Assembly (NCBI GenBank): GCA_044229845.1
Contig: JBGASG010000004.1
Coordinates: 416,001-480,000 of the forward strand
Length of the DNA: 64,000 bases
Direction: 5' to 3'
From: Candidatus Obscuribacteraceae bacterium
Lineage (GTDB): Bacteria > Cyanobacteriota > Vampirovibrionia > Obscuribacterales > Obscuribacteraceae
Shown here: piece by piece, positions 4,539 to 56,874 of the stretch
Position numbering within the stretch: the first letter of the stretch is position 1
How the letters are laid out: every line of letters begins with the position of its first letter
Made by a program: the position numbers and the translations under genes
Notes under the pieces: model-generated
The model's database searches: none
What the model saw: only the letters and a program-made list of their open reading frames with translations
What the model was told of the DNA's origin: nothing

Positions 4539-4555
4539 TACTGCTTAGCATAGTA
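4539..4555. other. Block-end palindrome copy (TACTG-N7-TAGTA)
   Basis: Member of the recurring TAC(T/G)A-N7-T(A/C)GTA motif; 1 mismatch. Confidence 0.55.
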
Positions 4556-4597
4556 TATCCGTTCGCACGAACAGAGCGCACGGGGCTGCACGCCATA

Positions 4598-7564
4598 CTA
4601 CCAGTGATCTCCTCGCTTGAATGTCCCGGCAGCGACTTCATTCAGCAGCGCCTTATTCTTGTCCGCCTCAGCGACATGACCCGATGCGCGCTGATAGAAC
4701 ACCAGGTCCTTCAAAACCTGTTGCAGTTGAATCATGTCCTTGCGCGTTAATTCGGTGCGCTTCTCGAGGAGCGCAGCCGCCTCCTGAAAGGTTTTCAGCG
4801 CGTCCTCGCGAAGCCGCAATTCAAACTGCAGCCGTCCGTACAACTTCAGCCGTCCCGCCGTCTTCACCGGCGGGTCTCGCTCCGCAAGCGCATCGATGCG
4901 CTGACGCAGCCGTTGCAGCATCATGGTGCGCTCCGCCGGTGTAGCAAACTTGCTGGTGAGGTTGGGCACAAACTCACTCAGTTCCCACATCTTGTCCAAC
5001 GGCGCCGAGCGATAATTTTCGGCGAGGCGATCAAACTGTTTCTTCGCCGATGCAGTGTCGCCCTTGAGCATCTGGATGTAAGCCAACCATGTCCTCGTAT
5101 CCTCGATTGTTTGCTCGTCCTCACCGCATAACCGGCGGACCGCCAGCAGCTGTTGCACCATCGGCTCGCATTCCGTTTGTCGTTTGGCAACACAAAACGA
5201 ACGCGCACAATAATCCAACGCAGTGGCAGTAATCGAGGAAATCGGGCCGGTCTCTGACTGCGCCAGCAGCAAGACTCGCTCACTGAGTTCGAGAGCGAGT
5301 TTGGGATCCTCAGCCATCTTCGATAGCACCACCAGGTACAAGTTGAGTGCAACCAGAGGTTGTGTCGATTCCAGCGCCTCCGCTTCTTTGACCATGGCTG
5401 CGCGATCGAAGGAAGTACCCGTGTAACGAAGCAACCGATACTCCCGCATGCAGGCGGGCAAATCTTCAGGAGCCAGTTTCGATAAAGGGTCAATGAGTTG
5501 CTGTAACTGTTGCGTCGCTTCGGAAACGCGGCTGAGTTTAGCCAGACAGAGCGCTTTTACCAGGTCGGCTTTCAAACGCATGCGCTGGTTGATCTCGCTA
5601 TCAGGCAGAGAAGCCACTGCTTCGGCCAACTTGAGAGCTTGCTGCGCATCCGCAGGCATGAGCGCTTCGGCCCGCACAAGATCCGCCTCTTGCGCCAGAG
5701 CCTTGTTTGAATTGCGCAGCGTGTCGGCAGCCGATTGCAACGCGCTGATCATCCCAGTGCGTTCCTGCTCAGCCAGCTCATAGCGCTTATCGTAAGCGTC
5801 TCGCAGCCGCGAATACGAAATGCGCAGCAGGCACTCGGCGTATGTCGGATCCTTGTCTCCCAGTGCCGATTTCGCTTTGACCAGAGCCGGCTCGAGCAGC
5901 GCGATTACCTGCTTGTACTCGCCGCGCTGCTGCAGCACCACAGCAGCGTTAGTCATAGACCCGATCAACTTTTGGAGGTGCGGGATCTGCTCGGCAGTCG
6001 GATGATCGCCAACGAAAGACAGGGCTTGTTTTGCCACTTCTGCCTCAGAGACTTGTCTTTGCGCCAGGTCGCCCGCCTTTTCTTTGAGCTGCTCGATCTG
6101 CCGCAAAAGCACATCGTATCCGTCTTTGTCGTTCAATATCAAAGCGATCAAAGCACGCTGCTGCAGGCTGCGTAACTGCTGCTCACGATTGCCGTCCGCC
6201 TGCGCGGTCGACTCAGCAACAACAAATTGCTCGTCTGCTTCTTTATAGTGTCCGTCGTTCATCAGCTGGGTGCCGCGCACGTCGAAGCGCTTCCACTCTC
6301 GCTTGAGCGGCAACATCAGCACCAGCTTGTCCTGGATTTTCGGCAGTTCAGAACTGAGATTTTTCGTAATCGGCACCGAGAACGCCATGCCGAGAACGCC
6401 AGTGGTGGCAATCACTGCAGCCAGCGTAGCAACATTGACGACCACACTGCGTTGACGCCCTGGCAGCGCCGATTTCCGACGGCGCCCCAGTCCCAACTTC
6501 TTGCCTGCATACAAGTTATACAGGGCATCCAAGACTTGCTGCGCTGACTGCGGACGATTAGCGGGGTCTTTCTCCAGACAACGCTCGATCAAGTCTTTGA
6601 GCGGCAGCGCATCGGAAGTTTTGTCCAGCCGCAGCGGTCTGGGCGGGGAAGAAACGTGCGCGTTCATCAAACCATATACGGTGTCTTCGGCAAACAGTTT
6701 TCGCCCAGAAAGCGCTTCGTACATGCAACAGCCCAAGGAATAAACATCAGAGCGCGCATCAGTCTGCTTGCCCATGCAATGCTCGGGGCTCATGTAGGCA
6801 GGCGTTCCGAGCGTCACACCAGTCTGCGTCAGGCTGGCGATAGACTCGCCTGCCGGCGAAGTCAGCTTCGCCAATCCGAAGTCGAGAATTTTTACTTTGC
6901 TGTTTTCAGGGACGTCATCCTCGACGATGAATATGTTTGACGGCGTCAGGTCGCGATGAATAATCCCCGCCTCATGAGCGGCGGACAGCCCGGCTAGAGC
7001 TTGCTCGAAGATTTCGAAAAACCGCTCTTTCGAAATTCCCGCCGGCGTGATCTCCTTGGACAGACTGTGTCCGTGCAAAAAGTCCATCACCAGGTACGGG
7101 CGCCCGTCCCAATGTCCGTAGTCCTGCACCGGAACTATATTCGGATGTCTGAGCTTTCTAGCTGCCTGCGCTTCTTGCTTGAATCGGGCGACTTTTTCCG
7201 AATCGAATGACAGATGCGGATGCAATAGCTTGATGGCGACCGAGCACTCCAGCTCCGGATGCCAGGCCTGCACCACGCAGCCCCAGCCGCCGACGCCAAT
7301 CACAGCATCGACGCGATAACGATCGTCGATGAAGGTGCCGAGCAGCTGCTGCTCGACCAGATCTTCATCCGTCTGCTTGAGTTCAATCGCTCGTCCGGCT
7401 GCGGCAACATCCACAACAGGAGCCGTCGGCGACGACTCGCATGCACAACGGTCGTCGCGAAAAATCCACTGCGTGACGGAGCCGACCTGTCCAATCTTGA
7501 GACCACAGCTGGCACAGGTGTCTGCTATTCGAGGTCCTTTTTGCTGCATTGCGGGACAGCTCAC
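4598..7564 (-). CDS. Hanks-type Ser/Thr protein kinase with TM segment and TPR-like C-terminus
   Basis: IGVGGWG, VAIK, HRDLTPSN, DFG, GTPAYMSPE, DVYSLG; helical repeats after the TM. Confidence 0.92.
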   Translation of the reverse strand: MSCPAMQQKGPRIADTCASCGLKIGQVGSVTQWIFRDDRCACESSPTAPVVDVAAAGRAIELKQTDEDLVEQQLLGTFIDDRYRVDAVIGVGGWGCVVQAWHPELECSVAIKLLHPHLSFDSEKVARFKQEAQAARKLRHPNIVPVQDYGHWDGRPYLVMDFLHGHSLSKEITPAGISKERFFEIFEQALAGLSAAHEAGIIHRDLTPSNIFIVEDDVPENSKVKILDFGLAKLTSPAGESIASLTQTGVTLGTPAYMSPEHCMGKQTDARSDVYSLGCCMYEALSGRKLFAEDTVYGLMNAHVSSPPRPLRLDKTSDALPLKDLIERCLEKDPANRPQSAQQVLDALYNLYAGKKLGLGRRRKSALPGRQRSVVVNVATLAAVIATTGVLGMAFSVPITKNLSSELPKIQDKLVLMLPLKREWKRFDVRGTQLMNDGHYKEADEQFVVAESTAQADGNREQQLRSLQQRALIALILNDKDGYDVLLRQIEQLKEKAGDLAQRQVSEAEVAKQALSFVGDHPTAEQIPHLQKLIGSMTNAAVVLQQRGEYKQVIALLEPALVKAKSALGDKDPTYAECLLRISYSRLRDAYDKRYELAEQERTGMISALQSAADTLRNSNKALAQEADLVRAEALMPADAQQALKLAEAVASLPDSEINQRMRLKADLVKALCLAKLSRVSEATQQLQQLIDPLSKLAPEDLPACMREYRLLRYTGTSFDRAAMVKEAEALESTQPLVALNLYLVVLSKMAEDPKLALELSERVLLLAQSETGPISSITATALDYCARSFCVAKRQTECEPMVQQLLAVRRLCGEDEQTIEDTRTWLAYIQMLKGDTASAKKQFDRLAENYRSAPLDKMWELSEFVPNLTSKFATPAERTMMLQRLRQRIDALAERDPPVKTAGRLKLYGRLQFELRLREDALKTFQEAAALLEKRTELTRKDMIQLQQVLKDLVFYQRASGHVAEADKNKALLNEVAAGTFKRGDHW

Positions 7565-7718
7565 GGGAATCGAGGACTATATACCATTCCCACTTCAGGA
7601 GGAAACGGATGGAAGCCGCGAAACGCTCATGACAACCTCGATTACCAGCCGCACATCGAAATCCAAGCTGATAAACTACCGGGCGCGCAAGCGCTGAAAC
7701 CCTCCAGCAATAAGGCGG

Positions 7719-8162
7719 ATGATTATGACTAAATCACAAACGGCAGCCCTGGTTGCAGCAACATCGGGACTAATCGCCCTGGTCTCATTGGGCTTTTCGC
7801 CCGCGACCGCCACGCCTGCAGATGAACAGGCGGCCGTGACCGCGGCCAAAGCCTGGCTCGCTCTCGTCGACAAAGGTCAGGTCGGGCAAGCCTGGGGTTC
7901 TTCGGCTTCGTTCATGAAGGCTGCCGCTCCCAAGCAGCAATTTGTAAATCAGGTCAAACCCATTCGCGACGCCTTCGGTAAGGTGCTCTCCCGCAATTTG
8001 AAGAGCAAGCAATTCACCAAGTCGGTGCCCGGCGCGCCCGATGGAGAGTACGTCATCATCCAGTTCGATACGGTATTTGAGAAGAAAAAGGACGCCGTCG
8101 AGACGATCACGCCGATGAAAGACAAGGGTCAGTGGCGCGTTTCCGGCTATTTCATCAAGTAA
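7719..8162 (+). CDS. DUF4019-type exported protein
   Basis: Signal peptide; AKAWLALVDKG..PGAPDGEYVIIQFDT..ETIT..WRVSGY. Confidence 0.8.
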   Translation: MIMTKSQTAALVAATSGLIALVSLGFSPATATPADEQAAVTAAKAWLALVDKGQVGQAWGSSASFMKAAAPKQQFVNQVKPIRDAFGKVLSRNLKSKQFTKSVPGAPDGEYVIIQFDTVFEKKKDAVETITPMKDKGQWRVSGYFIK

Positions 8163-8177
8163 GAAACTGAGGGCAGC

Positions 8178-9320
8178 ATGGCATCGACTTCCGAAGTGAA
8201 ACTTCTGATCGGCACTAAGAAAGGGGGGTTCACCCTCTCGTCCAACGCCGAACGCAACCGGTGGGAGCAGTCCGATCCCATCTTTCTCGGTCACATCATT
8301 CACCATTTCATCAGCGATCCCCGCGACAGCAAAGTCTGTCTGATGGCCGCTAAGACTGGGCATCTGGGACCGACCGTGTTTCGCTCACTCGATGGCGGTG
8401 CCAACTGGAAAGAGGCATCCAAGCCCCCCGCCTTTGCCGCCACCGGTGGTGACACTGTCGCCAATGCCGAGAGCGCCGGTGGTCCGCCCGCTGTCGATCG
8501 AGTGTTCTGGCTCACACCCGGGCATACCACCGAAAAACATGTCTGGTATGCAGGCACCGCACCAGCCGGGCTGTTCCGCAGTCAGGACGACGGCGATACC
8601 TGGGAGCCGGTCGACGGTTTCAACGATCATCCGTCATACAAAGAGTGGACTTCGATAGGACCCACGCCGGACGGTCAGTTTCTTCACTCAATCAATATTC
8701 ATCCGCAAAACCCCCAGCAAATGTACCTGGGCATCTCCGTGGGTGGTGTCTTCGAGTCGACAGACGGCGGCAAACAGTGGGCACCGCTCAATCAAGGCTG
8801 TGCTGCCGACTTTCTGCCCGACGCAACGGATTTCGGACATGATCCGCATTGTCTGGTCGTTCACCCGAAAAATCCCGACCGACTGTACCAGCAAAATCAC
8901 TGCGGTCTCTACCGCATGGATCGTCCGGACAATAAATGGAAACGCATCGGCGACAATATGCCCAGAGAAATCGGAGACATCGGATTTCCGATTGTCGTTC
9001 ATCCCACCGATCCCGACACGGCTTGGGTCTTTCCCATGGACGGCACGACGGTCTGGCCGCGCACCAGTCCCGGTGGCAAACCGGCCGTCTATAAGACCAC
9101 CGACGGCGGAGAATCATGGCAGCGCAAAGACAGCGGACTGCCGCCTGCCCACGGATACTTCACGGTTAAAAGGCAATGCATGACCTGCGACACCGGAGAA
9201 CCGATCGGTTTGTATTTCGGCACCACTGCCGGTGAAGTCTGGGCAAGCAAAGACGGGGGCGAAAGCTGGACCTGCGTTACACGCCACTTGCCGGAAATCT
9301 ACTCGCTGCATATCATGTAA
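8178..9320 (+). CDS. BNR/Asp-box beta-propeller protein (sialidase-like)
   Basis: Multiple SxDGGxxW Asp boxes; DPHCL and YQQNHCG motifs. Confidence 0.88.
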   Translation: MASTSEVKLLIGTKKGGFTLSSNAERNRWEQSDPIFLGHIIHHFISDPRDSKVCLMAAKTGHLGPTVFRSLDGGANWKEASKPPAFAATGGDTVANAESAGGPPAVDRVFWLTPGHTTEKHVWYAGTAPAGLFRSQDDGDTWEPVDGFNDHPSYKEWTSIGPTPDGQFLHSINIHPQNPQQMYLGISVGGVFESTDGGKQWAPLNQGCAADFLPDATDFGHDPHCLVVHPKNPDRLYQQNHCGLYRMDRPDNKWKRIGDNMPREIGDIGFPIVVHPTDPDTAWVFPMDGTTVWPRTSPGGKPAVYKTTDGGESWQRKDSGLPPAHGYFTVKRQCMTCDTGEPIGLYFGTTAGEVWASKDGGESWTCVTRHLPEIYSLHIM

Positions 9321-9330
9321 GAGGAGCGTC

Positions 9331-9588
9331 ATGCGCGTCAACATCCCCAGTCCACTGCAATCCTACACACAAAAGAGTTTTGTAGAAGGGCATGGCGGCT
9401 CACTCCAGGAATTACTGGATGCACTCAACGAGACTTATCCCGGTATCCGCTTTCGCATGATCGACGAACACAACCGCATTCGCAAACACATAAAGATATT
9501 CGTGAACAAACACCCAGCTGCCGATTTGAATGTCGCCGTCAAACCCACCGATGAAGTGCACATAATTTGCGCCCTGAGCGGGGGTTAG
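9331..9588 (+). CDS. MoaD/ThiS-family ubiquitin-like protein
   Basis: ATG at 9331 after GAGGAG; beta-grasp pattern; C-terminal ALSGG. Confidence 0.88.
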   Translation: MRVNIPSPLQSYTQKSFVEGHGGSLQELLDALNETYPGIRFRMIDEHNRIRKHIKIFVNKHPAADLNVAVKPTDEVHIICALSGG

Positions 9589-9627
9589 CGGTACGCTGCG
9601 GCAGCGAGCGCGCGGGCGCACGCAGCC

Positions 9628-10602
9628 ATGAAAGTAATCCTCAAAACTTTATTTGCACCATACTGCCGCATGCCCGGTCGCAGCGCCTCGTGCACCTCGC
9701 CATTGAGTCCGCACGAACAGGTACTGGTAAAGCGGCTGAGCGGCCATGTGCGGCACCTTTCCGTTTGGCTCGGTGAACGCAACGAGCGCGAAATCGAGTC
9801 TCTCCACGGGGCTGCGGACTATATCGAGGAGCAGTTTTCGTCCACCGGAGTCGGCGTCGTCAGGCGCGAGAAGGTGGTTATCTACACACCGCTCGGCTCG
9901 CGAGTCGAAGCCGATAATGTTGTGCTGGAGCTGCCAGGCAGCAACGGCGGCGCGGACGAGATATTTGTTATCGGCGCTCACTATGACACCGTATTTGGTT
10001 CACCAGGGGCTAACGACAACGGCAGCGGTGTGGCGGCGCTTCTGGAAATCGCGCATGTGCTGGCTCAGTCGAAGCGCCGGCGCACAGTGCGCCTGGTGGC
10101 GTTTTGCAATGAAGAGCACCCCAATATGGAAGCCGAGCTGATGGGCAGCTACTCTTATGCCGCCTCCTGCAAACGCAAGAAAGAGAAAATCATCGGCATG
10201 TGGAGCCTGGAAACCATCGGCTATTTCACCGATGCGCCGGGCAGCCAGCATTACCCGGCACCGCTGAACAAACTGTTTCCTTCAGTGGGAAATTTCATCG
10301 CATTCGTCGGCAACTACGAATCGCGACACTGGGTGCATGAGAGCATCTCGCGCTTTCGCGACGTCGCCACCGTGCCCAGCGAGGGCATCGCCGCCCCCGG
10401 CAAATTTGTCGACATCGACCGCTCGGACCACTGGGGTTTCTGGAAAGCCGGCTATCCGGCTCTGATGATCACGGATACCGCTAACTTCCGCTACCCCTGG
10501 TACCACAGCTCCCAGGACACCCACGAAAAAGTCAGCTATGAGAACCTGGCGCGGGTCGTGCGAGGACTGGCTCAAGCGGCGTTTTGCATCAGCCGCATGT
10601 AA
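9628..10602 (+). CDS. M28 family metallopeptidase
   Basis: IGAHYD, GANDNGSG, NEE, LETIGY, SDH, YH motifs. Confidence 0.9.
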   Translation: MKVILKTLFAPYCRMPGRSASCTSPLSPHEQVLVKRLSGHVRHLSVWLGERNEREIESLHGAADYIEEQFSSTGVGVVRREKVVIYTPLGSRVEADNVVLELPGSNGGADEIFVIGAHYDTVFGSPGANDNGSGVAALLEIAHVLAQSKRRRTVRLVAFCNEEHPNMEAELMGSYSYAASCKRKKEKIIGMWSLETIGYFTDAPGSQHYPAPLNKLFPSVGNFIAFVGNYESRHWVHESISRFRDVATVPSEGIAAPGKFVDIDRSDHWGFWKAGYPALMITDTANFRYPWYHSSQDTHEKVSYENLARVVRGLAQAAFCISRM

Positions 10603-10714
10603 GGTGCCCGCCGCTCCGAGCTTAAAGCCCCAGCCGCGCCTGAATTTGGGGTTGCAAAGAGATCTGTAAACAGATCTGTAACAAGGACTGGAAACAATAT
10701 GTAGCGTGATCTCA

Positions 10715-10732
10715 ACACCATATCTGGTGCAG
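10715..10732. promoter_or_regulatory. CACCA-N4-TGGTG palindromic box upstream of beta-repeat paralog 1
   Basis: ACACCATATCTGGTGCAG, identical to 53951-53968. Confidence 0.6.
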
Positions 10733-10887
10733 ATTGAGGCATCTCTTTTGTTTCCTCTCTTCTCGCAGTCGCCCCTCACCAAAGACGCCATTTCAGCCAC
10801 GTTTTGCGCGAGCTTACTTCCGGTCACAGCCGGTGCGACAAGTCTGGAATCAAGAGTCAGTTGCAACTGAACCTAGGAGATTGCCCC

Positions 10888-12003
10888 ATGACGAGAAAGT
10901 TCTGGGCTCAAAGGAAGTGGACAGTGGTCGGACTCGCCGCCTCCGTCCTCTTGCTGCTGACTGCAGTCGGCGGCATCGGTTATGCACTGGTTGCCGGCAT
11001 CCCGGCGGCGCAGCCTGGGCCCATCGACCCCGTGGTCGAAGCCGCCTTGCACGCCTCCACCGAGCAGCAGCCGCAAATCGAAATGATGAGCGAGGCCAGC
11101 GGCGAGTTCAAGCGCGTCCACTACACGCGCCTCGACGGCAGCCGCGAGCATATGGAGATCTTCTACCGCAACGAGGCCAAGGGCATCGTTCTCTTTCGCC
11201 TCGACAACACACCATCTTCGTTCAAGGTGGTGGCGGCAGACGGTTTCGTGCTCCAAGACATAACCTACGACGCCACCGGCGCCGTGGTCATCGACGGCTT
11301 CGAGAAACGCCTCGAAACTCGCAAGCTGCTCTGGGAGACCAAAACCCTTTCCAACGGTGACATCCACACCGTTCGGTACTGGAAAAACGGCACCCAGATC
11401 TACGCTGACAGCTTGCTCAGCAAAGCATCCCAGACCATCGAAACCACCTACTGGCGCGGCGGCGGCAGCAAGTGGATGCACACGATCGCCAATGTCGCCA
11501 CTCCGAACAGCCCTTACTTCGAGGAGTTTTTCGAGGTCAACGGCGATCTGACCTGGCGCATCGAGCGCGGCAGCAACGGCGCCGCCGAAGAGAGCTTCTT
11601 CCGTCCCGACGGAACGCTCTATTTCGTGCGCCATCACAAGCTGCCGGTGATGATGGGCGCGCCGATGGGTTCTGCCCCTTCGGTGCATCTGGACTCCACG
11701 ACGGTCTACGCCGCCGACGGCAAGACCGTGACGATGGAGATCTTCTGGTGGTCGGAGTTGACTCCGAGCCGCATCGAGATTCCCAGTCCCGATGGCTCGA
11801 AGGCAATTCACTACTTCGGCTTCCAGCGCGAAAGCAACGACGTGCGGTACTTCGATGCCAAAGGTCAGCTGACCGGCGAGTCGCCCAGCGGCGCCGACGG
11901 ACGGCTCTTCCAGCAGATCGATCCGCGCATGTACCTCGAACATGTGCCTGCTCCGCAGGACATGGACGCGCAGATGGAAGAGATCCAGAAGAACTGGTCC
12001 TGA
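10888..12003 (+). CDS. Membrane-anchored beta-hairpin repeat protein (MORN/YwqK-like), paralog 1
   Basis: AGGAG RBS; N-terminal TM; repeated Y/F-R-x-DG turns; aligns by eye with 54123 and 55638. Confidence 0.65.
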   Translation: MTRKFWAQRKWTVVGLAASVLLLLTAVGGIGYALVAGIPAAQPGPIDPVVEAALHASTEQQPQIEMMSEASGEFKRVHYTRLDGSREHMEIFYRNEAKGIVLFRLDNTPSSFKVVAADGFVLQDITYDATGAVVIDGFEKRLETRKLLWETKTLSNGDIHTVRYWKNGTQIYADSLLSKASQTIETTYWRGGGSKWMHTIANVATPNSPYFEEFFEVNGDLTWRIERGSNGAAEESFFRPDGTLYFVRHHKLPVMMGAPMGSAPSVHLDSTTVYAADGKTVTMEIFWWSELTPSRIEIPSPDGSKAIHYFGFQRESNDVRYFDAKGQLTGESPSGADGRLFQQIDPRMYLEHVPAPQDMDAQMEEIQKNWS

Positions 12004-12144
12004 CGGAGCACAAGGATGCGGCACCTCAGATGGTGTCACACTCTGTTCCACCGTTCCTATCCCGCCCGGGACGGGAACGGTGGAACGCTCCGCCCGGCTT
12101 TCTCTTCCGCATTTGACGAAACACGAACGCTCATGAGGGAAAAA

Positions 12145-12522
12145 ATGAGTGACTTGCATTTGCTTGCTCCCATGATTTTGACGGTGCCGGTTGCGACGCC
12201 CGTCTTGATGGTGTCCTGGCTTTTCATGCAAATGACGGCGAACATGGACGAAGGAAGAATCGCTCCCATCGTGCTCGCCTGGCTGCCCGCGACACCGATG
12301 GTGTTCTGGCTTCTTAACGGTGGCTCGATTTCGCTCGCCGGATTCTTCATCGCTGCTTCGCTCAGCGGCACCGCCGTTCTCCTTTTGGCAATGCGCTTTC
12401 AACCGGCCACGCCTAACCACGGCTGGTTCAGTTCGGCGTTAACTTCGGCAGCGTGGGGAATCTGCGCCAACATCGGCTTCGTGCTGGCGCTTGCTCCCCT
12501 GATCTGGCCGCTCAAAGCCTGA
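12145..12522 (+). CDS. Hypothetical 4-TM membrane protein
   Basis: Hydrophobic ORF; GAGGGA before ATG. Confidence 0.55.
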   Translation: MSDLHLLAPMILTVPVATPVLMVSWLFMQMTANMDEGRIAPIVLAWLPATPMVFWLLNGGSISLAGFFIAASLSGTAVLLLAMRFQPATPNHGWFSSALTSAAWGICANIGFVLALAPLIWPLKA

Positions 12523-12540
12523 CCTTCTTCGGGCTTCGAG

Positions 12541-12621
12541 GCGCTGTGGTATGACGAACTAGCACCGCCTTGCGGTTGCGGATCTGCATACCACAGCGCA
12601 CTCCCCCTCTCTTTGATTTTT
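12541..12621 (+). terminator. Long hairpin plus T-rich tract after the 10888-12522 block
   Basis: 13-bp inverted repeat GCGCTGTGGTATG/CATACCACAGCGC. Confidence 0.5.
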
Positions 12622-12629
12622 CGCCTTTA

Positions 12630-12646
12630 TACTATTTCTATTAGTA
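12630..12646. other. Block-end palindrome copy (TACTA-N7-TAGTA, perfect)
   Basis: TACTA tttctat TAGTA. Confidence 0.6.
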
Positions 12647-13032
12647 TTACCAGATCGATATGTTGCATGAACCAGATTTAGGCGCTGCCACGGCAGATCT
12701 GGACTGGGGCTGCGCGAAGTGACGCAGCGCGCGAAGCGCCGCTATGAGAATTCATGCCACGAGCGCCTTGCTTTGCTCGATAGCACCACGTTTAAGCTGG
12801 AGACTATATTCGCTTAGCGCTTCGCTCTCCCCCGCTCCCCAAACAATCGCACAGATACCGCTGACAGCTTTCTCTCGGCTCGACATGAGCTCTGTCGGTA
12901 CTCGTGCTGAACCAGTTTCTTAACCGGAAGAAAACACGAAGCGCTGCGAACAAACGGCTCCTCGCTTGTGTGGCGGCATGCGTACGGCGCCTGTCGTTCG
13001 AACACACATTCGGCGGTCAGAGGGAAACTTGC

Positions 13033-13305
13033 ATGCTTCTAGGAATTTTAATCGCACTCGGTGTAGTCGCCGCAGTGGCGCTCTGGACCCTGTGCGCCCG
13101 ACTCAACTACCGCCTTTGCAAGGACGAAGTTAGCCATGAGGGACTGGTCGAAATGGTGATGCTGGGAGCGGTCGGCACCTTATTTCTGCTCATCTGCATG
13201 GGAGCAGAAGGCTGGCTGAATTTCTGCACGCGTGGCGCCTATAGTGCTCATCGCGCGGCAGCCAAGCGCACTCGCCTGAATAACTCTGGAGGAAATCGAT
13301 GCTGA
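13033..13305 (+). CDS. Small 2-TM hypothetical protein
   Basis: MLLGILIAL..; similar to the next ORF. Confidence 0.6.
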   Translation: MLLGILIALGVVAAVALWTLCARLNYRLCKDEVSHEGLVEMVMLGAVGTLFLLICMGAEGWLNFCTRGAYSAHRAAAKRTRLNNSGGNRC

Positions 13306-38358: not shown

Positions 38359-38366
38359 CAGCACAG

Positions 38367-48830: not shown

Positions 48831-49056
48831 GACATGGCTCCGTTTGAGGGAGGACGGGAGTGCCCTCCCAGAGGGGTTTAGTCAGGAAATCCACTCAGAT
48901 GCGTGCCACCGCCGAAGATGCCTGAGCACCCCCGGTGGTGGCAAACGCCGAGTCCTGAGCCTCCATGCATTGGCAGGGGTGGAACCTGCCCGGAGCCCAA
49001 TCAGTCACCACGCAAGTCAGGCGACCGCAATGCCGCCTGCTGGGGCGACACCGCGA

Positions 49057-50556
49057 TCACCAGATCAAAGTGGTGACCGAGTTGGGTTCGAGATGCACTT
49101 CGGCAAACTGTTCCGTCACGTTCAGCGTCACCGTGCGCGGCTTGTCGGAGCCGTTGGTGATGACGAGAACGCACTGGCCGTCAGGATTCTTGAAAGCCAC
49201 ATGGAACAGGTCTTGATGGTCCCCGTCGGAGGCAATGCGCACGGCACCGCGCTTGACGAAGCTGGAGAACTGGGCCATAGCCCAGAACTGACCGCTGTAG
49301 GAGATGGCGTTCGACTGCGAGTCGACAGTCACCAGTCCGCCACACGGGAAGGGTCCGATGTTCGGATTGCCTTTGTCGTCCAGCGCCAGGTTCCAGGCGG
49401 TCACCGCCCGGCACCAGTTGCGCAGGTTGCCCGTGAACGTCTTGCCCCAGCGCACCCAGTCGGTTGCGTAGTTGGGGTCGGTGATGTCCGGACCACCTTC
49501 GGTCCAGTACATGCCGATTTGCGGATACGCCTCGTGCACTTGCGTGACGCGAGCGGCGTCGCCGACGTAGCCGTGCCAGGCGATGCCCTGGCAGTGCTCG
49601 AGCATGCCGGGTTCAGCCAGAGACGCGAGCGCGCGTCCCCACAGGTTGTAGTTGTGGTCGAGCATCCAGACCTGGGTGTCGAGAGACGCGGCTTTCAGAG
49701 CCGGTCCCAGATGCCCACGAATGAAGTCGACCTCGTACTCCTGCGGCCACGCGCAGGCGGGCATGCGCCCGTCCTGATCCGTGTCGACCTCGTTGTTGAC
49801 CGTGACGGCGTGGACGGGAATCCCTTCCTTGCCGTAGTCCTGAACGAAGCGCACGAAATACTGCGCATGCGCGTCCATATAGCGACGCTGCATGTTGCCG
49901 CCCAGCATCGACCCGTTGGACTTCATCCAGCCGGGCGGACTCCAGGGCGAGCCGAAGATGAACATCTCCGGGTTCTGAGCGCGTGCCTCGCGAAGCATGG
50001 GCAGAATCCACTGCCGGTCATGATCGATGGAGAAACGCTTCAGCTCCGGATCCGGTTCAGCTCCGTCGCAGTAGCTGTAGACCTTGGTGGCGTAGTCGGA
50101 CGCACCCATGCAGACGCGGTTGACATTGAGACCGAGCTGCGAAGGGTGGAACAGCTGATGAAACAGCTTGGCGCGCGCGTTCGGATCGAGACGATTGAAC
50201 GTGAACGCCGCCGCGTCAGTCATGGCGCCGCCGAACCCGAGGATGCTCTGATAACCCTGGCGAGGGTCGATCTTGATCATCTCGGAAACAGAGCCGGCAG
50301 CGACAGAACCGCCGCGGTGAGCGGGTTTGCCGTCACAGTCTTCGTCCCACCGCCACGAGATCGCGGATTGGGCGGTCAGACGACCCGTCGCGCTGGTCGA
50401 AACCGGCTTGAGCGGGCGATCGCGAAGCGGAAAGCAGGGCGCTTTCAGGGGCCCATCGCAGGGCGTGCTTCGCGGCGGACGGCGAGAAATGAAGGCTCCC
50501 AGCATGGCGACAAGCACCACACCGGCAACCCCTGCGAGTAACTTCAGGTCAACCAT
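49057..50556 (-). CDS. GH30 glucosylceramidase-like hydrolase
   Basis: YQSILGFGGAMTDA, SPWSPPGWMK, NNEV, WTEG, WNLALD. Confidence 0.93.
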   Translation of the reverse strand: MVDLKLLAGVAGVVLVAMLGAFISRRPPRSTPCDGPLKAPCFPLRDRPLKPVSTSATGRLTAQSAISWRWDEDCDGKPAHRGGSVAAGSVSEMIKIDPRQGYQSILGFGGAMTDAAAFTFNRLDPNARAKLFHQLFHPSQLGLNVNRVCMGASDYATKVYSYCDGAEPDPELKRFSIDHDRQWILPMLREARAQNPEMFIFGSPWSPPGWMKSNGSMLGGNMQRRYMDAHAQYFVRFVQDYGKEGIPVHAVTVNNEVDTDQDGRMPACAWPQEYEVDFIRGHLGPALKAASLDTQVWMLDHNYNLWGRALASLAEPGMLEHCQGIAWHGYVGDAARVTQVHEAYPQIGMYWTEGGPDITDPNYATDWVRWGKTFTGNLRNWCRAVTAWNLALDDKGNPNIGPFPCGGLVTVDSQSNAISYSGQFWAMAQFSSFVKRGAVRIASDGDHQDLFHVAFKNPDGQCVLVITNGSDKPRTVTLNVTEQFAEVHLEPNSVTTLIW

Positions 50557-50772
50557 GGTATGACCTCGTTTGGTTGATTCTGATTGAGATTTGCCGCCCG
50601 CCGGGCAGCCGCCGAAGCGGTGCGCAGCCCCAATCGGACCGTTTCGCTTTCGATGCGAATCCGGTTTCTTCCGATCGGCGGCTGGGCACCATATTCGGTG
50701 CTGTCCCAGGCAGGCGACGCGAAAACTCGGGCAGATTAGATTAGTTGCTCAGCCCGAGCTATTTCGGGGGGG

Positions 50773-51222
50773 TTAGTGACCCCGAAACTTGTTGCCGGCG
50801 CGCATCGGCAGCCAGGTGCGTCCCCGGGTGGGAATGACACCGCTGATGATGCCGACGCCGAACCCGGCGATGGCGGTGGTCACCGTCAATGCCAGGTAGT
50901 TGGTGATGGCCACATACGGCACGATCAACGTGGACAGCCAGAAGCCCACGCAGAGCGTCACCGCGAAGGCGAGCCACTGAATGAAGCGACCGGTCTGAAA
51001 CCAGTTGAACAGCGAACGCATGCCGCCGGTGATGGCGACGCCACCGAAGACGCCGACGACACCGGTGATCACAGCCGTGGCCAGCACGCCGACCCAGCTG
51101 GCGATGGTGTGCGTCGAGCCCCAGGTGAGGGCGAGCGCCAGAAACGCAGCCGCCGAGAAGATGGCGACTGTGTTGAACGTGTGCCGACCGGCGAAGCCGT
51201 GCGGCGTTTTGATGTTGAACAT
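50773..51222 (-). CDS. Hypothetical 4-TM protein
   Basis: Hydrophobic ORF; GGAG RBS. Confidence 0.6.
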   Translation of the reverse strand: MFNIKTPHGFAGRHTFNTVAIFSAAAFLALALTWGSTHTIASWVGVLATAVITGVVGVFGGVAITGGMRSLFNWFQTGRFIQWLAFAVTLCVGFWLSTLIVPYVAITNYLALTVTTAIAGFGVGIISGVIPTRGRTWLPMRAGNKFRGH

Positions 51223-51932
51223 AGAGCAACTCCGTGTTCTCGACGACATCGGCTCTGCATACCGATTCGTCGCGTGATGCGGTTGACGAGTCGACACCAC
51301 CATGGCGGCGACCACTCTTCTCTCGTTCGCGGAATCAGGTGAGTTGACCTTGAGAACCCAGCCTGAGTCGCCCTCCACTGGACGTGAAGTCAGTGTTATC
51401 TGGAGAGCTAATTAGCCAGGGGTATGGGCTGTTTCCGTGGACGGAGTGCAGAAAGAAAGAGACAGGTCAGAGTACGAAACTAGAACCAGCCAGGGCTATC
51501 CTCCAGTTTCAGATCTGATTGAAAACTAATCGATTTCAGCATCTCGTCGCTGTCAGAACTCGCACAGCGACAGGTGAATGTTTGTAATCAAACTTGGTGC
51601 GTTTGTAATCAGATCCTTAATTCTGACCACTAACAAATCTTGATACACAACTTATCTCTGAATATTTGAGATCCAGCACCGTTTCTTGATAGAGAAAGGC
51701 GTCTTCCTCACATTTTCTTTTCCAGTTCGTTCCCCGGCCAAAAACCAGCATTAGTCACGACCTTTGCACGTCGCCTTCCGACTCCTCATCGGTAATGGGC
51801 GGCCGCGTTGTCGGTTTGACTGGTCGTTGGCGCTGCGGAGCGGAGTTTCGAATTGGAAGAGTGACTGCGAGAGAGGCACTAAATCCGGTGTCAAGCCGGG
51901 CTTTTTTCAGCCTTGTTTTAGAGAGGAAAAGC

Positions 51933-52280
51933 ATGAAGAAACTCTACGTTCCCGTCACCGTGGATCAAGGTGTCGCCGTCCTGCGCCGTCAGATTCCCCT
52001 GGAGAATGCCGCGCGCACGGACAAGCACACAGTGATCGCCTACACAGACCGCGCGGTGGCGGTTCTGGAGGGGCGACGCGCCGACAGCGATCTCACCGAG
52101 ATCGGTCTTTTGGCCGTCGAAATCGAAGAGCATCTGTTCGAGACGCTGCTCGTCGGCGACTGGATCCATCACGGACCTGTCGCTCACTGGCTCTCGGATC
52201 AGAGCTTGGAACTGGAGCACGGCGCCTACGGCCGGTTCAGCCATGAGGCGCACTTCAGCCTGGAAGTGGTGAAAAAGTAA
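51933..52280 (+). CDS. Hypothetical protein
   Basis: GAGGA RBS before MKKLYVPV. Confidence 0.55.
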   Translation: MKKLYVPVTVDQGVAVLRRQIPLENAARTDKHTVIAYTDRAVAVLEGRRADSDLTEIGLLAVEIEEHLFETLLVGDWIHHGPVAHWLSDQSLELEHGAYGRFSHEAHFSLEVVKK

Positions 52281-52345
52281 ACGACACGCTTCCAGTCAGG
52301 ACACAGACCCTAAACCAAACCTCCTTGTTAGGAAAGGGAAAGTCC

Positions 52346-52825
52346 ATGACGACCCCGCGTTACGAGCCGGAAGCGACGGCTCTTTCAGTCGCAACCGTCT
52401 CACCCGCGCGTGGCGCCGGCGATGCTTCGACCCTCAGGGTTGGAGCTACCGCCAGCTTCACTCGCACCATCACGCAAGCAGACATCGATGCGTTCGCCGA
52501 AGTCTCAGGCGACGATCAGCCGTTGCATCTGGATCCGGCAGTCGCCGCCCAGAGCATCTTCGGCGGTATCGTCGCCCACGGCATGCTGTCCGGAGCCATC
52601 TGGTCGGCAGTCCTCGGCAAGCACATCCCCGGTCCCGGCACCATCCTCACGGGCTGGGACGAGATGCGCTTCGTGAAGCCCGTTCGCCCGGGGGACGAAG
52701 TCACCTTCCACGGTGAAATCGTCGAAATCGGCGAGCGCGGCAAGATGAAGGTCAAACTCACGGCGGTGAAAGCCAACGGTGAGCTGACTGCCTACGGCAC
52801 GGCCTGCGTCGTCTACCGGCGCTGA
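52346..52825 (+). CDS. MaoC/PhaJ-family (R)-enoyl-CoA hydratase
   Basis: FAEVSGDDQPLHLD, IVAHGML, PGPG, FVKPVRPGD. Confidence 0.92.
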   Translation: MTTPRYEPEATALSVATVSPARGAGDASTLRVGATASFTRTITQADIDAFAEVSGDDQPLHLDPAVAAQSIFGGIVAHGMLSGAIWSAVLGKHIPGPGTILTGWDEMRFVKPVRPGDEVTFHGEIVEIGERGKMKVKLTAVKANGELTAYGTACVVYRR

Positions 52826-53003
52826 CCGCTTACGGCATTGGTCTGCGCCAGCCGGCGCTGACCGCCGCGAAAACGAGACGGGCCTGCATCACTCGGGGCC
52901 GTCTCACCAATACAGCAAACCGGGGCTCGCACAAAGCCCCCAACTTCACGCCAACGAAGCGGAAAGCGGCTTGCCGCTTTCCGTTTCTTCAGGAGATACA
53001 ACC

Positions 53004-53654
53004 ATGACACGCCACCACAGACAGGGGCGCGGACGAAACCGCCGCCGGCGCGACACCACGACCCTGGTCCTGAGCGGCGCGGACTGGGTCAACCAGTTTC
53101 CCACATCGCGCGACGTGGAGGACCTGGCATCGCCGTTTCGCGAGAACGTCAGATCGTTCATCGCCGCCCTGCAAACCGCAGGCGCTACAGTCTCCATCGC
53201 CGCCACGTACAGGCCGGCGGAACGGGCTTACCTCATGCACTATGCGTACCGCATTGCTCGGGAAGGTCTGAATCCGCGCGACGTGCCTGCACGCAACGGC
53301 GTCGACATCGAGTGGGTTCATCGCAAGGCGAACAACCAGGTCGACCTGGTCGCCTCGAAGAATGCCGCCGAAGACATGGTGCTCGCATACGGCATCGTCT
53401 ATCGCCCGGCTCTCAACTCGCAGCACACGCGGCGACTGGCCATCGACATGACCATCACCTGGTCGGGCACGCTGTCCATCAAGAATGGCAGAGACAGGAC
53501 GGTGGACATCACATCCTCACCACGCACAGGTCAGAACGGCGAATTGCACGCCGTCGGACAGACCTACAACGTGGTGAAGCTGGTTTCCGACCCGCCGCAC
53601 TGGTCGGCTGACGGCACGCTGCGCACCCGCAGCCGGCGCCGCGGCACGCGCTAG
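53004..53654 (+). CDS. M15/Hedgehog-DD-peptidase-like peptidoglycan hydrolase
   Basis: TYRP, SQH..AID, DPPHWS Zn-ligand pattern; AGGAG RBS. Confidence 0.7.
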   Translation: MTRHHRQGRGRNRRRRDTTTLVLSGADWVNQFPTSRDVEDLASPFRENVRSFIAALQTAGATVSIAATYRPAERAYLMHYAYRIAREGLNPRDVPARNGVDIEWVHRKANNQVDLVASKNAAEDMVLAYGIVYRPALNSQHTRRLAIDMTITWSGTLSIKNGRDRTVDITSSPRTGQNGELHAVGQTYNVVKLVSDPPHWSADGTLRTRSRRRGTR

Positions 53655-53782
53655 GCGGTTTTTTCCGCACCCTCCCTTAGCGACGCACGGTTCTTGCGGA
53701 TTGCTGCAGGCAAAGCTTCGGCAATGTCTGTATCCGCAGGAACCGTCGTCTTTTCCTCCCAAAATTTTTTCCACACACCGCC

Positions 53783-53799
53783 TACGATGCTATATCGTA
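53783..53799. other. Block-end palindrome copy (TACGA-N7-TCGTA, perfect, covaried)
   Basis: Downstream of 53654, after a T tract. Confidence 0.6.
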
Positions 53800-53950
53800 T
53801 ATCCACGAATCTCCCACGGGGTGCCCAATTACGGTACACCGTAAAAATCCACTCCAGAAATTCGGTATACCGGAAACGGACCCGGCTCGCGAAGCGGACT
53901 GCGTGCCGCAGCACTTCCGGACCACCTTAAGATAATTTCTGATGTTTCAT

Positions 53951-53968
53951 ACACCATATCTGGTGCAG
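53951..53968. promoter_or_regulatory. CACCA-N4-TGGTG box upstream of paralog 2
   Basis: ACACCATATCTGGTGCAG, identical to 10715-10732. Confidence 0.6.
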
Positions 53969-54122
53969 GGTGAGGTTATCCCTCGTTTCCTCCCGCACCC
54001 CGCACTTCCCGCACCACACAACCTCCCGCAGAGCCACATCTCATACCCGCGCCCGCGACGAATTGTCGTACACCGATCTGTTTTCCCGTCAGGGGAAATT
54101 CGGTTTTAGCCAGGAGGCTGCC

Positions 54123-55229
54123 ATGCCCCGTTTCTTCTTCTTCGTGCATCCTGATTTGCATCTGACGCCGCGCGGCGTCCTGCGCTCCGTTCTGAGCAGC
54201 CGTGATCTGCCGCCTTTGCTAGGCTCGCTGGCTGTCATCGGCGTCGTAGTCGGGGCTCTGCTTTTCGCCTGGCGCCCCGCCCCGCCACCGCCGCACACAA
54301 CCAACACGAATGTGACGTACGAGCTGGGCGCCGCGAGCTCCGGGATCTACATGCAGAAACACCTGCGGCGCGCCGACGGCACCGTGCGACAGACGCTGAT
54401 CGATTACACCAACGGCGCTCTCGGCACCATCAACTACCGCCTCAACGGCACCGCGCAAGACTTCGCCATCGTGGCAGCGGACGGCACCCACACGCTGGAG
54501 GCGATTTACGCCGCGGACGGCAAGACTGTGGTGCAGGGCTTCGAGCTGCGCGGCGACCGCACGCTCGCCTGGAAGACCGACAGGCTTGTCGACGGCAGCC
54601 TGCGCACAGTCAGCTACTGGAGCGACGGGCGGCAGCCCTTCTCCATCAGCATCACCAACGACAAGGCGGTCACCGCCGACTTCGTCTACTTCCGGGCAGA
54701 CGGCAAACCGTGGGCGCACCAGTGGTTCAAGGGTCTCGACAGCAAGGGCATTTTGCTCGGCGAAGACCTCTACTCGGCGCGCACCGGGCTGATCGAACGC
54801 TCGATTCGGCATATCACCGACGGACGCCCCAGCGATACGGCGACCTACTACCGGATCGACGGCACAGCGCGCCTGCGGCTGGTCTGGCTGGGTCGGGGGT
54901 CGCATGAGGGTTTCTACATGGAGCTGGACAGCACCACCCTCTTCGCCGCTGACGGGCAAACGCAAACACTGCTGATTTCCTGGTCGGAGCTGGCGCCCTG
55001 GGCAATCACCACCTACAACGGCGACGGCACCAGCGTCGTCAACCGCTATCTCAACGGCGCACCGCGCAACCGCAAGGTGGTGGCAGCCGACGGCACCACG
55101 ATCAGCGACACCGCCGATGGTGCCGACCCGACTTTGCCGGCGCAGATTCTGCCTGAATATCGAGCCGCCTCGGCGCCCAAACAGGCTGATCCGCCAGCCG
55201 AGCGCCAGGCAGCCGAAACCCGTCCGTAG
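54123..55229 (+). CDS. Membrane-anchored beta-hairpin repeat protein, paralog 2
   Basis: AGGAGG RBS; TM; VVQGFELRGDRT; YFRADGKPW. Confidence 0.65.
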   Translation: MPRFFFFVHPDLHLTPRGVLRSVLSSRDLPPLLGSLAVIGVVVGALLFAWRPAPPPPHTTNTNVTYELGAASSGIYMQKHLRRADGTVRQTLIDYTNGALGTINYRLNGTAQDFAIVAADGTHTLEAIYAADGKTVVQGFELRGDRTLAWKTDRLVDGSLRTVSYWSDGRQPFSISITNDKAVTADFVYFRADGKPWAHQWFKGLDSKGILLGEDLYSARTGLIERSIRHITDGRPSDTATYYRIDGTARLRLVWLGRGSHEGFYMELDSTTLFAADGQTQTLLISWSELAPWAITTYNGDGTSVVNRYLNGAPRNRKVVAADGTTISDTADGADPTLPAQILPEYRAASAPKQADPPAERQAAETRP

Positions 55230-55434
55230 GCGGCAATGGACCCTCGGGCATCTTGCACATGTCCGAGGGTCCGTATCCGGCCAGTGCGCACGCTTGCGCG
55301 AGCCATTCAGCGCACCCAGCTAGCGCGAGTGCGCGCCAGCGTGCAAGCGGCGTGGAAACCAAGCCCGCTGCCACTCTCGCTGATTGTAAAGAGGCGCGCA
55401 AACAAACCGCATAACAATAGTTTTCGTGATCATC

Positions 55435-55452
55435 ACACCACAGGTGGTGCAG
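55435..55452. promoter_or_regulatory. CACCA-N4-TGGTG box upstream of paralog 3
   Basis: ACACCACAGGTGGTGCAG. Confidence 0.55.
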
Positions 55453-55637
55453 GTTCTTCTTATCACTTCTTTTTTCTCGCGATTCTCAAGCACGACTCTC
55501 GAAACCAATAACAAAAGCGCCAGCACCACATTCGCAAGACAACATCCTGCTCACGCACGGCTGGTGTCCCGTCTCTGGCTCGCGAGAGAAGAGAAGTTTC
55601 CTCACTCACTCAACCCAATCACCTGATGGAGGTTCTC

Positions 55638-56741
55638 GTGCAGAACACCAATCCTAAGTCCAGCAGGCTGCGCGCCGTGCTGTCCAATGCTATCCCCATC
55701 CTCGGCAAGAGCTGGGAACTGCCGGTTCTGGCAGTCACCGTCGCGGTCATGGTCGGCGTCATCGTGCTTTTCGGCATGCTCTGGCGCGACCCGCAACCGC
55801 TGCACAACGACACCAACCCGCTCGTCACCTACGAACTCGGCGACGAACGCATCGGCGAGTACATGCGCCAGCACTTCCGGCGCAACGACCGCTCGATGCT
55901 GAAGACCCTGATCACCTATCGCAACGGCGACCTCGGCACGGTCAACTACCGCACCGACAGCACGTTCCGCGACTTCACGGTGGTGGCACAGGACGGCACG
56001 CACGTCCGCGAAACCAGCTACGACATCACCGGCAAGAAGGTGGTCAAAGGCTTCGAGCTGCGCTCCGATCGGACGCGGCTCTGGCAGACCGAGACGCTCG
56101 CCAACGGCACCGTGAAGACTGTCGTCTTCTGGCGCGACGGTAAGCAGCCTTTCTCCGTGCGCCTGGTCAACGAGAAAGACAACACCACCGACTTCACCTA
56201 CTTCCGCCAGGACGGCAAGATGTGGGTGCACCAGTGGTTCGTCGGCTCGTACTACCGGCAGGGCGAAGACCTGTACTCGGAGAAGACCGGACTTCTCGAG
56301 CGCACCTACCGGCGCCCGAAAGACCGCAGCAGCGCCGAGGAAGTAACTTACTACGGCGCCAATGGCGTTCCGGCCTTCAAGCTCACCTGGGTGACCACCT
56401 CCAGCGAGCACTCGTATTCGGTCGACCTCTCCAACACGGTCGTGTTCAACGCGGACGGCCAGACGCCCGCGCTGACCATCTCCTGGGTCTGGGGATCGAA
56501 ACCGGATTCGATCATGGTGCCCAATCCCGACGGAACGCGCGTCGTCAACCACTACGGCACCAAGGGCGAACCGCTGGCACAACGGCTGGTCGCCAAAGAC
56601 GGCACGCAAATCTCGTCCACCGAGAAGGGCGCCGACCTGAGCTTGCTGGCTCGCGTCAAGCCGGAATACTACGTTCAGACAAGACCGGAACCAGTCGACC
56701 CGGTGCCGGTCTGGAAGGAAGCGGAAGCGAAGTCGCCCTAG
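55638..56741 (+). CDS. Membrane-anchored beta-hairpin repeat protein, paralog 3
   Basis: GTG after GGAGG; VVKGFELRSDRT; YFRQDGKMW. Confidence 0.65.
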   Translation: MQNTNPKSSRLRAVLSNAIPILGKSWELPVLAVTVAVMVGVIVLFGMLWRDPQPLHNDTNPLVTYELGDERIGEYMRQHFRRNDRSMLKTLITYRNGDLGTVNYRTDSTFRDFTVVAQDGTHVRETSYDITGKKVVKGFELRSDRTRLWQTETLANGTVKTVVFWRDGKQPFSVRLVNEKDNTTDFTYFRQDGKMWVHQWFVGSYYRQGEDLYSEKTGLLERTYRRPKDRSSAEEVTYYGANGVPAFKLTWVTTSSEHSYSVDLSNTVVFNADGQTPALTISWVWGSKPDSIMVPNPDGTRVVNHYGTKGEPLAQRLVAKDGTQISSTEKGADLSLLARVKPEYYVQTRPEPVDPVPVWKEAEAKSP

Positions 56742-56790
56742 CGGTTGACTTAGCTGCGCGCTGACTTCCATCTGAGTGAGAAGCGACTGC

Positions 56791-56848
56791 ACGGTTCCTC
56801 CCGCGACAAGGCGCAAGCCAAGGCGCAGCGGAGGAACCGTTTCTTTTT
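56791..56848 (+). terminator. Intrinsic terminator
   Basis: acggttcctcc/ggaggaaccgt stem followed by TTCTTTTT. Confidence 0.65.
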
Positions 56849-56857
56849 GACCTTATT

Positions 56858-56874
56858 TACTATTTGCAATAGTT
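56858..56874. other. Block-end palindrome copy (TACTA-N7-TAGTT)
   Basis: In the convergent gap between 56741 and 56987. Confidence 0.55.

Follow-up and report, generated by a model that had tools for sequence, protein, structure and literature searches.

A palindrome concentrated in the origin domain of Obscuribacteraceae as a likely centromere-like site

In a 64,000-nt stretch from the genome of a Candidatus Obscuribacteraceae bacterium (the window; positions 416,001-480,000 of contig C19 in G000, a 5.16-Mb assembly of 22 contigs that is 88% complete), we analyzed the intergenic palindrome TAC(T/G)A-N7-T(A/C)GTA, which a first-pass annotation had proposed as the core or scar of a gene-cassette system served by a tyrosine recombinase. 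Comparison with other members of this family of non-photosynthetic relatives of cyanobacteria indicates instead that the palindrome is very probably a protein site of the origin domain, and likely a centromere-like one. To the fuller model, in which a family-specific protein resembling RacA and RicO binds the palindrome and compacts and tethers the origin region in place of ParABS, we assign a probability of roughly 0.6. Among the alternatives that the first-pass annotation had itself listed, the site of a chromosome-organization protein is the one that fits best.

Palindromic sites and their chromosomal position

A scan of the window allowing at most one mismatch returned 13 palindrome matches versus 1.14 expected. 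Two of these (at 623 and 39654) lie inside predicted coding regions; the other 11 are the annotated copies, whose coordinates and arms proved correct and which are all intergenic according to gene calls from a purpose-built codon model, so that gene starts are approximate. The number of intergenic copies in 200 local 20-nt shuffles averaged 0.86 and never exceeded 4, versus the 11 observed, so that AT richness does not account for them. Six of the probable origin-domain sites occupy convergent gaps, as had been reported: TACTG-N7-TAGTA (4539..4555), TACGA-N7-TAGTT (18205..18221), AACTA-N7-TAGTA (26137..26153), TACTA-N7-TCGTA (37145..37161), TACTA-N7-TAGTA (42010..42026) and TACTA-N7-TAGTT (56858..56874). 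The remaining five are in tandem gaps, and none is in a divergent gap; three of them follow a stop codon by 107, 91 and 128 bp, respectively (TACTA-N7-TAGTA, 12630..12646; TACTA-N7-TAGTG, 13609..13625; TACGA-N7-TCGTA, 53783..53799), and two have minus-strand genes on both sides (TACTA-N7-TAGTT, 27227..27243; TACTA-N7-TAATA, 44552..44568). The copies do lie beyond gene 3' ends, at a measured distance of 42-248 bp. To describe these as the ends of accessory gene blocks is too narrow, since the core genes dnaN and ftsH also precede sites in relatives, and the hairpin and T-tract ascribed to the sites hold only in part: T-rich and A-rich flanks are clear at 103 sites of the relative G041, but a terminator scan of window 36.5-45 kb gave 9 hits versus 8.1 expected.

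To define the taxonomic range of the motif, we used the same arms at spacings of 8-10 as a control; the counts include kin genomes, which are not independent. The family Obscuribacteraceae contains 762 matches versus 143 expected, and 44 of its 78 genomes are enriched (p<0.01), versus 7 of 183 genomes in the rest of the class. A mild excess is also present in families f5 (25 versus 17) and f9 (24 versus 15) and in the sister family f2 (21 versus 11), and none was detected in f3, f7, f8, f10 and f11.

In better-assembled Obscuribacteraceae, the sites are gathered in a region of 0.7-1.4 Mb that contains dnaA and has sharp edges, and this domain makes up 13-20% of the chromosome. In the single-contig genome G041, the span 2.41-3.06 Mb holds 48 of the 50 matches listed (51 in all), with dnaA at 2.83 Mb, where the GC skew changes sign; a weight-matrix scan of this genome gave 103 sites in 710 kb. 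Sixteen of 17 matches in the second single-contig genome, G063, lie at 1.66-3.03 Mb (dnaA at 2.58 Mb), and all 23 strict matches in G006 are on contig C1 at 147-1182 kb (dnaA at 580 kb). In G101 and G102, the first site is found about 8 kb to the right of dnaA.

In G000 itself, 13 of the 14 strict matches are on C19 and C21. The dense stretches begin at about 0.37-0.40 Mb on C19 and at 42 kb on C21 and in each case run up to the contig end, together about 0.2 Mb; two further sites lie near the start of C19. Inside this domain, 25 intergenic matches occur in 38.8 kb, versus 27 in 661 kb outside it, and among intergenic gapped palindromes only ACTA-N7 and its TACT-N9 frame are concentrated there. 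Neither dnaA nor ParB was found in the G000 assembly. We infer that C19 and reversed C21 represent the two arms of the origin domain, with the origin in an assembly gap; the whole window (1..64000), as part of the site-bearing region of high GC content at third codon positions (GC3) that runs from about 0.37/0.40 Mb to the end of C19, would then belong to one arm. The contig ends C19:497,656 and C21:127,373 lie 170 and 164 bp past the start of a site, and such assembly breaks are expected if an insertion sequence (IS) or a variable block sits there.

The preference for convergent over divergent gaps, a check that the first-pass annotation had called for, extends well beyond the window: a site is present in 56 of 88 convergent, 38 of 270 tandem and 6 of 115 divergent gaps in G041, and in 11 of 16 convergent gaps inside the G000 domain versus 2 of 254 outside it. 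T-tracts and A-tracts stand beside the core at roughly helical spacing in G041.

When orthologous sites with homology on both flanks were compared in three sets, arm identity was 88/90, 28/30 and 68/70, and spacer identity was 0.56, 0.71 and 0.92, versus 0.49, 0.64 and 0.91 at four-fold sites in the same sets. The arms are thus under selection, and the spacer drifts neutrally. We rejected the idea that a hypervariable spacer marks repeated exchange, as the spacer rate is neutral. On the leading strand, the spacer is purine-rich (73/103 in G041; 15/16, 11/12 and 24/25 (G000, orientation inferred from skew)), a bias that far exceeds the intergenic skew of about 0.03. The combination of selected arms, a neutral spacer and polarity is the profile of a directional protein-binding site.

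The site region also differs from the rest of the chromosome in composition. At the first site of G041, GC content rises from 0.43 to 0.47, and just past the first sites of G101 and G102 it rises from 0.49 to 0.59. GC3 is 0.546 inside the domain versus 0.417 outside it in G041 (0.498 versus 0.425 for the genes shared with G000) and 0.749 versus 0.645 in G000. This step of about 0.1 at the domain edge, which affects conserved genes too, is seen at 2.41-3.08 Mb in G041, from 400 kb in G000 C19 and from about 45 kb in G101/G102; gene conversion, mutation regime and gene origin are possible causes.

A candidate MerR-type binding protein

The family genomes searched for chromosome segregation genes are drafts, bar the two single-contig ones. 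ParB (PF02195, ParB_N) is present in only 2 of 22 relatives and ParA/Soj (PF13614, E<1e-40) in 2 of 17, the others having weaker matches (best E 1e-13 to 1e-24) that are probably MinD-type. No canonical parS cluster was found near oriC in any of five genomes, each of which has one or two two-mismatch matches, no more than the control. The two single-contig genomes likewise yielded no ParB, strong ParA or parS cluster.

We searched MerR-type domains because the 5-7-5 geometry of the palindrome fits the GlnR operator, TGTNA-N7-TNACA (PMC9249791, in excerpt), and because GlnR and TnrA share their fold with RacA (PMC4914108, in excerpt). The search identified a candidate whose N-terminal 135 residues are almost invariant; these are followed by a Pro/Glu-rich linker that is long and variable, and then by about 60 residues that form a conserved C-domain. 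With one query, it was found in 56 of 77 family genomes, in one of two from the sister family and in none of 181 from other orders. In nine genomes, it is encoded on the dnaA contig at a distance of 0.3-0.9 Mb from dnaA: G041, G063, G006, G115, G065, G010, G084, G074 and, if the distance is counted across the contig ends, G092. A site scoring at least 10 is present within 450 bp upstream of the candidate in 14 of 31 orthologues, versus backgrounds of 52 of 555 domain genes in G041 and 7 of 146 in G000.

Among family assemblies, dnaA is missing from 18 of 104. It is missing from 10 of the 21 genomes in which the candidate was not found versus 2 of the 56 that have it, and the median motif count is 4 versus 9.5 in the same two groups. 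Such joint loss of the candidate gene, dnaA and motifs is as expected if genome bins lose the domain, and suggests that binning drops a compositionally distinct origin domain, with dnaA-less bins also tending to lose the candidate gene and the motif.

The predicted structure comprises a winged helix (residues 1-75), a long helix (92-135), a disordered stretch and a three-helix C-domain. The protein matches PF13411, and its sequence matches include CarH, RacA, TnrA and GlnR. The top Foldseek match is the DNA-binding domain of RacA (root-mean-square deviation 1.2 A, target TM 0.87, E 1.4e-3). The 44-residue helix is predicted with a local confidence (pLDDT) of 80-96 and has hydrophobic residues at 8-9 of 13 heptad positions; residues 136-190 have low pLDDT, and the linker ranges from about 50 to several hundred residues among orthologues. 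The last helix has a hydrophobic moment of 0.30, and no named protein resembling the C-domain was found.

In the proposed mechanism, the candidate would bind the palindrome as a dimer, given that 5-7-5 palindromes are what the related GlnR/TnrA fold reads; the long helix would oligomerize and bridge sites; and the acidic C-domain would bind a polar or membrane partner (DivIVA was not found). Sites would persist downstream of terminators since a tight roadblock does no harm in that position. The bound protein may also bend or expose DNA 9.5 bp outside the arms, a feature that IS and other incoming DNA would exploit.

Three origin anchors that combine a helix-turn-helix (HTH) domain with a coiled coil, RicO, RacA and RocS, are described from Firmicutes (bioRxiv 10.64898/2026.03.06.710092, in excerpt), which counts 25 ram sites over about 600 kb and, for ricS, 9 intergenic sites over about 700 kb. 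The candidate has their small N-terminal MerR/MarR-type winged HTH and their disordered linker, and many sites, presumably cognate, lie over 0.6-0.7 Mb around oriC. A pole or membrane anchor, be it DivIVA binding or a C-terminal amphipathic helix, was not recognized; for this reason we do not count the candidate as a member of this group, although it would work in the manner of ram/RacA and ricS/RicO.

A close parallel is RicO/ricS of Staphylococcus aureus, in which, according to the same preprint, intergenic sites are spread over about 700 kb around oriC with one upstream of the gene, and the protein joins a small MerR/MarR-type HTH to a coiled coil, a disordered region and a C-terminal anchor. 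The ricS sites are nine non-palindromic 18-bp sequences, whereas the motif described here is a polar 5-7-5 palindrome in tens to about 100 copies. At the C-terminus, RicO has an amphipathic helix and the candidate an acidic domain of three helices. S. aureus, from a different phylum, keeps ParB/parS, which the family mostly lacks. RacA of Bacillus subtilis (PMC4914108) offers the closest solved fold, many ram sites within about 600 kb of oriC, and a similar set of parts (DNA-binding domain, linker, oligomerizing helix). It differs in that ram sites are GC-rich and within coding sequences according to the RicO preprint, versus the AT-rich intergenic motif described here, and in that RacA binds DivIVA, not found here in 20 genomes. 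The candidate's long helix, in addition, follows the HTH and precedes the disordered linker. GlnR/TnrA operators (PMC9249791) share the 17-bp 5-7-5 layout, the MerR-type winged-helix reader and the arm positions T1 and A5, but have arms of TGTNA rather than TACTA, and our sites lie past 3' ends in one chromosome region rather than at promoters. As with MatP/matS (MatP in PMC4914108), a repeated site would define one macrodomain. The palindromes resemble ParABS in being grouped around oriC, but the motif is unrelated and most of the family lacks ParB, a strong ParA and a parS cluster. The matS site marks the terminus, unlike the origin-marking palindrome. In the literature, which we covered in part, we found no description of the palindrome, nor of RacA in Obscuribacter or of a tyrosine recombinase in Obscuribacterales.

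Several observations weigh against the model of a RacA/RicO-like anchor. The candidate gene is not in the G000 assembly, and its co-absence with dnaA is only an indirect account of this. G065 has the gene and yet no clear motif cluster, with 7 matches of which 3 lie within 0.45 Mb of dnaA; families f6 and f4, which lack the gene, show a mild N7 excess (184 versus 114 and 205 versus 151); and no site lies upstream of the candidate in 17 of the 31 orthologues, G041 included, these orthologues not being independent. In G101 and G102, no sites were found in the fetched 31 kb to the left of dnaA. As for the protein, its RacA fold match falls short of E<=0.001 and MerR-type domains in general score nearly as well, CarH outranks RacA by sequence, the C-domain is acidic (net charge -6.4) with no clear terminal amphipathic helix, and DivIVA was found in none of 20 genomes. 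Finally, a symmetric dimer leaves site polarity unexplained, and the model does not explain the sharp GC3 step.

If the model is true, a solution of the Firmicutes type (RacA, RicO, RocS) also exists in another phylum, in a diderm sister group of the cyanobacteria, and would bear on the open question of how bacteria without ParABS segregate their origins. As the model names one protein and one 17-mer, tests in vitro or in E. coli would need no culture of the host.

A further protein encoded near oriC, of 147 residues and without a Pfam family, lies beside jag in G041 and G006 (L013:18798-19238), is 74-80% identical across four relatives and is more conserved than DnaA. We considered and rejected it, as it is probably a three-helix membrane protein; it could be a partner of the anchor.

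Insertion sequences and gene turnover at the sites

All five full IS1595 copies in G041 are in the domain, each 13 bp from an arm; four of them were measured, with an 8-bp duplication, and the fifth was read off separately. An IS of G043 that is 72% identical to the G041 IS1595 has the same offset. In the fetched G041 domain, the only region searched for it, five of five IS1380 copies have a 4-bp duplication and stand 11 bp away from an arm, and one of them adjoins a motif copy inside an IS1595. The duplications of both elements are centered 9.5 bp outside the arm. Elements of the IS1202 family, the 'dif hunters' of Acinetobacter, likewise insert with a constant spacing and orientation relative to a site occupied by protein, the XerC-bound pdif (PMC10132070, in excerpt), although the IS described here belong to the IS1595 and IS1380 families. 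The fixed offset is most simply read as the work of a host protein that, when bound, would bend or expose the DNA where its footprint ends. Landing of IS at a fixed offset would account for much of the gene turnover beside sites without a dedicated recombinase, and two unrelated IS families at one exact offset link chromosome organization to where new DNA lands. Two inserts initially taken for cassette traces proved to be such elements: a 1.75-kb insert read as an attB to attL/attR conversion is an IS1380 with a motif-like sequence at its end, and a duplicated G041 block is an IS1595 bounded by its own inverted repeats.

We offer only tentatively, and with more doubt than confidence, an extended version of the model, in which ParABS has been replaced by the RacA-like protein and by polar palindromes, as many as about 100, that enclose a sharply bounded origin domain, the sites serve as landing pads for IS and gene blocks, and the origin region forms a gene-acquisition compartment with raised GC.

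The first-pass annotation was right to tie the sites to DNA gain, as seen in the enrichment of indels at site gaps, the junctions that end at the motif and the fixed-offset IS. Its explanation, that the motif is the core of an integron-like or dif-module-like cassette system whose recombinase escaped detection and whose cassettes enter and leave at the sites, we consider unlikely, because a cognate recombinase was looked for and not found, and the majority of breakpoints are not near sites. Indels of at least 300 bp are present in 8 of 26 site-bearing gaps versus 6 of 88 others (p=0.003), but the enrichment is weaker without divergent and short gaps (p=0.015; p=0.09 at a 150-bp threshold), and two of three site-free convergent gaps also carry indels. 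Between G101 and G102, a 3.5-kb block between two sites is wholly replaced and several homology junctions end at the motif, yet only 6 of 38 synteny-break ends lie within 80 bp of a site and the other 32 lie farther away, in relatives that are too diverged to place a crossover. One G044 site corresponds to two G041 sites that flank a 200-bp insert. Comparison with G001, which is about 94% identical but lacks the window's stretch, gave five indels in the C21 domain, of which one is near a site and none falls within the spacer. The best protein identity in a metagenome scan for close strains was 71%.

Fixed-offset IS insertion resembling that of IS1202 at pdif, and a site polarity that is uniform within a replichore, would also suit a cassette system, and the gene blocks between sites vary as they do in the pdif/dif modules of Acinetobacter (PMC10132070 and PMC12907356); the arms and spacer are unlike dif, however, and no linked recombinase was found. 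Spacers of random site pairs are 0.33 identical, while orthologous spacers drift neutrally. Of the six PF00589 matches (E<=1e-10) in G041, the single-contig relative richest in sites, none is in the site region, and a home-made hidden Markov model detected no tyrosine recombinase in the G041, G101 and G102 stretches, serine recombinases and other classes not having been searched genome-wide. In the window, Pfam families were assigned to 25 of the 66 proteins scanned, and none of these 25 is a recombinase or transposase.

The only tyrosine recombinases common across the family are XerC/XerD-like. A canonical dif-like site is present at G000 C22:292,425, about 30 kb from a GC-skew switch; the palindrome, with other arms and another spacer, does not fit the definition of dif as an ATAA-N6-TTAT core in single copy near the terminus. 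With the canonical dif elsewhere in G000, we rejected XerC/D as acting on the palindrome.

A FimB-like recombinase encoded by a stand-alone gene in the G000 domain (C21:83666-84376) was also rejected as the enzyme, its clade being patchy and not found in G041. In four genera, a FimB-like domain with partly degenerate catalytic motifs is fused to homoserine kinase (ThrB) (L140:7356-8978, L141, L142, L143). Three tandem tyrosine recombinase genes at G000 C22:46.9-49.3k resemble a RIT element.

Other readings of the palindrome

It is likewise rather unlikely that the palindrome is an origin-domain site bound by some other protein, such as an SMC loader, a topoisomerase partner, an HU/IHF-like protein or a second MerR-type protein encoded beside xerD. 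Motif and candidate are linked by correlation, the G065 genome encodes the candidate but shows no clear cluster, and an HU/IHF-family gene lies within the G041 domain; convergent gaps, moreover, gather positive supercoils. Set against this, no better candidate emerged among the G041 domain proteins scanned (part of 723 predicted genes; SMC genes were not searched), and the xerD-linked protein is also present in other orders, where motif excess is weak. This protein, an HTH protein of 300-430 residues with a CxxC...CxxC motif and a conserved C-terminus, lies beside xerD in most genomes searched, including the sister family (L376:619-1824, G000 C1 at about 390 kb; L387, L377, L389, L391), and could be a Xer accessory or directionality factor.

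Improbable, too, is that the candidate itself binds the motif, but in the role of a transcription roadblock, insulator or GlnR-like regulator and not as an origin anchor. It would account for the GlnR-like 5-7-5 geometry (PMC9249791), the strong bias to convergent gaps and 3' ends, and the site upstream of the candidate's own gene in 14 of 31 orthologues; but a regulator or terminator aid would not stay within 13-20% of the chromosome, with a site in only 2 of 254 convergent gaps outside, and would not avoid divergent promoter gaps (6 of 115).

There is very little to be said for the view that the motif is a scar left by a small mobile element, or the end of such an element, which a protein joining a PLD-type nuclease to an XRE-HTH domain (PLD-HTH) would spread. 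A module of about 90 bp with two palindromes has 13 BLAST copies in G041 and ends about 30 bp before a site, one copy following a PLD-HTH gene, and 7 of 21 PLD-HTH loci of the order have a downstream site. However, the paired module was not found in the G044 and G016 assemblies, which keep sites, the five G000 PLD-HTH paralogues lie outside the domain and have no scoring site, and scars would not keep 88 of 90 arm bases. The PLD-HTH protein was rejected as a general cause because of its patchy distribution.

We give hardly any credence to the arms as overlapping antisense -10 promoter elements, an alternative also listed in the first-pass annotation: TACTAT and TAGTAT resemble TATAAT, but this would explain neither the fixed 7-bp spacing (8 matches versus 1 at spacings 8-10 together) nor origin confinement and replichore polarity, and a promoter scan of window 36.5-45 kb gave 1 hit versus 2.1 expected, not at a motif.

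The two-palindrome module consists of ATATGC-type palindromes 33-34 bp apart and is found at 2.44-3.06 Mb in G041 (examples at 2,862,221; 2,885,302; 2,909,980; 3,058,249). Several modules lie between two sites that are 143-271 bp apart, with a recurrent spacer (TATCAAG/TATTAAG), and the module may be mobile, a small unit that takes a site along with it. The PLD-HTH family (about 250 residues; PLD-type nuclease with intact HxKxxxxD...GSxN, CxxC and XRE-HTH) occurs at full length only in Obscuribacterales-type records. Its genes (G000 C8:133.7-134.5k, C1:440k and 955k, C6:68k and C13:103k; L015:11453-12205; L018:7528-8295; L283-L303) are often followed by their own tandem or palindromic repeat array; as in RAYT/REP systems, these repeats also have copies at other places in the genome.

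Rfam and tRNA scans of the window gave no match. Between the sites at 26137 and 37145, the window carries a run of about 15 same-strand genes (26248-35163), most of them without a Pfam family; the exceptions are an S41 peptidase, a UPF0114 protein and a deaminase.

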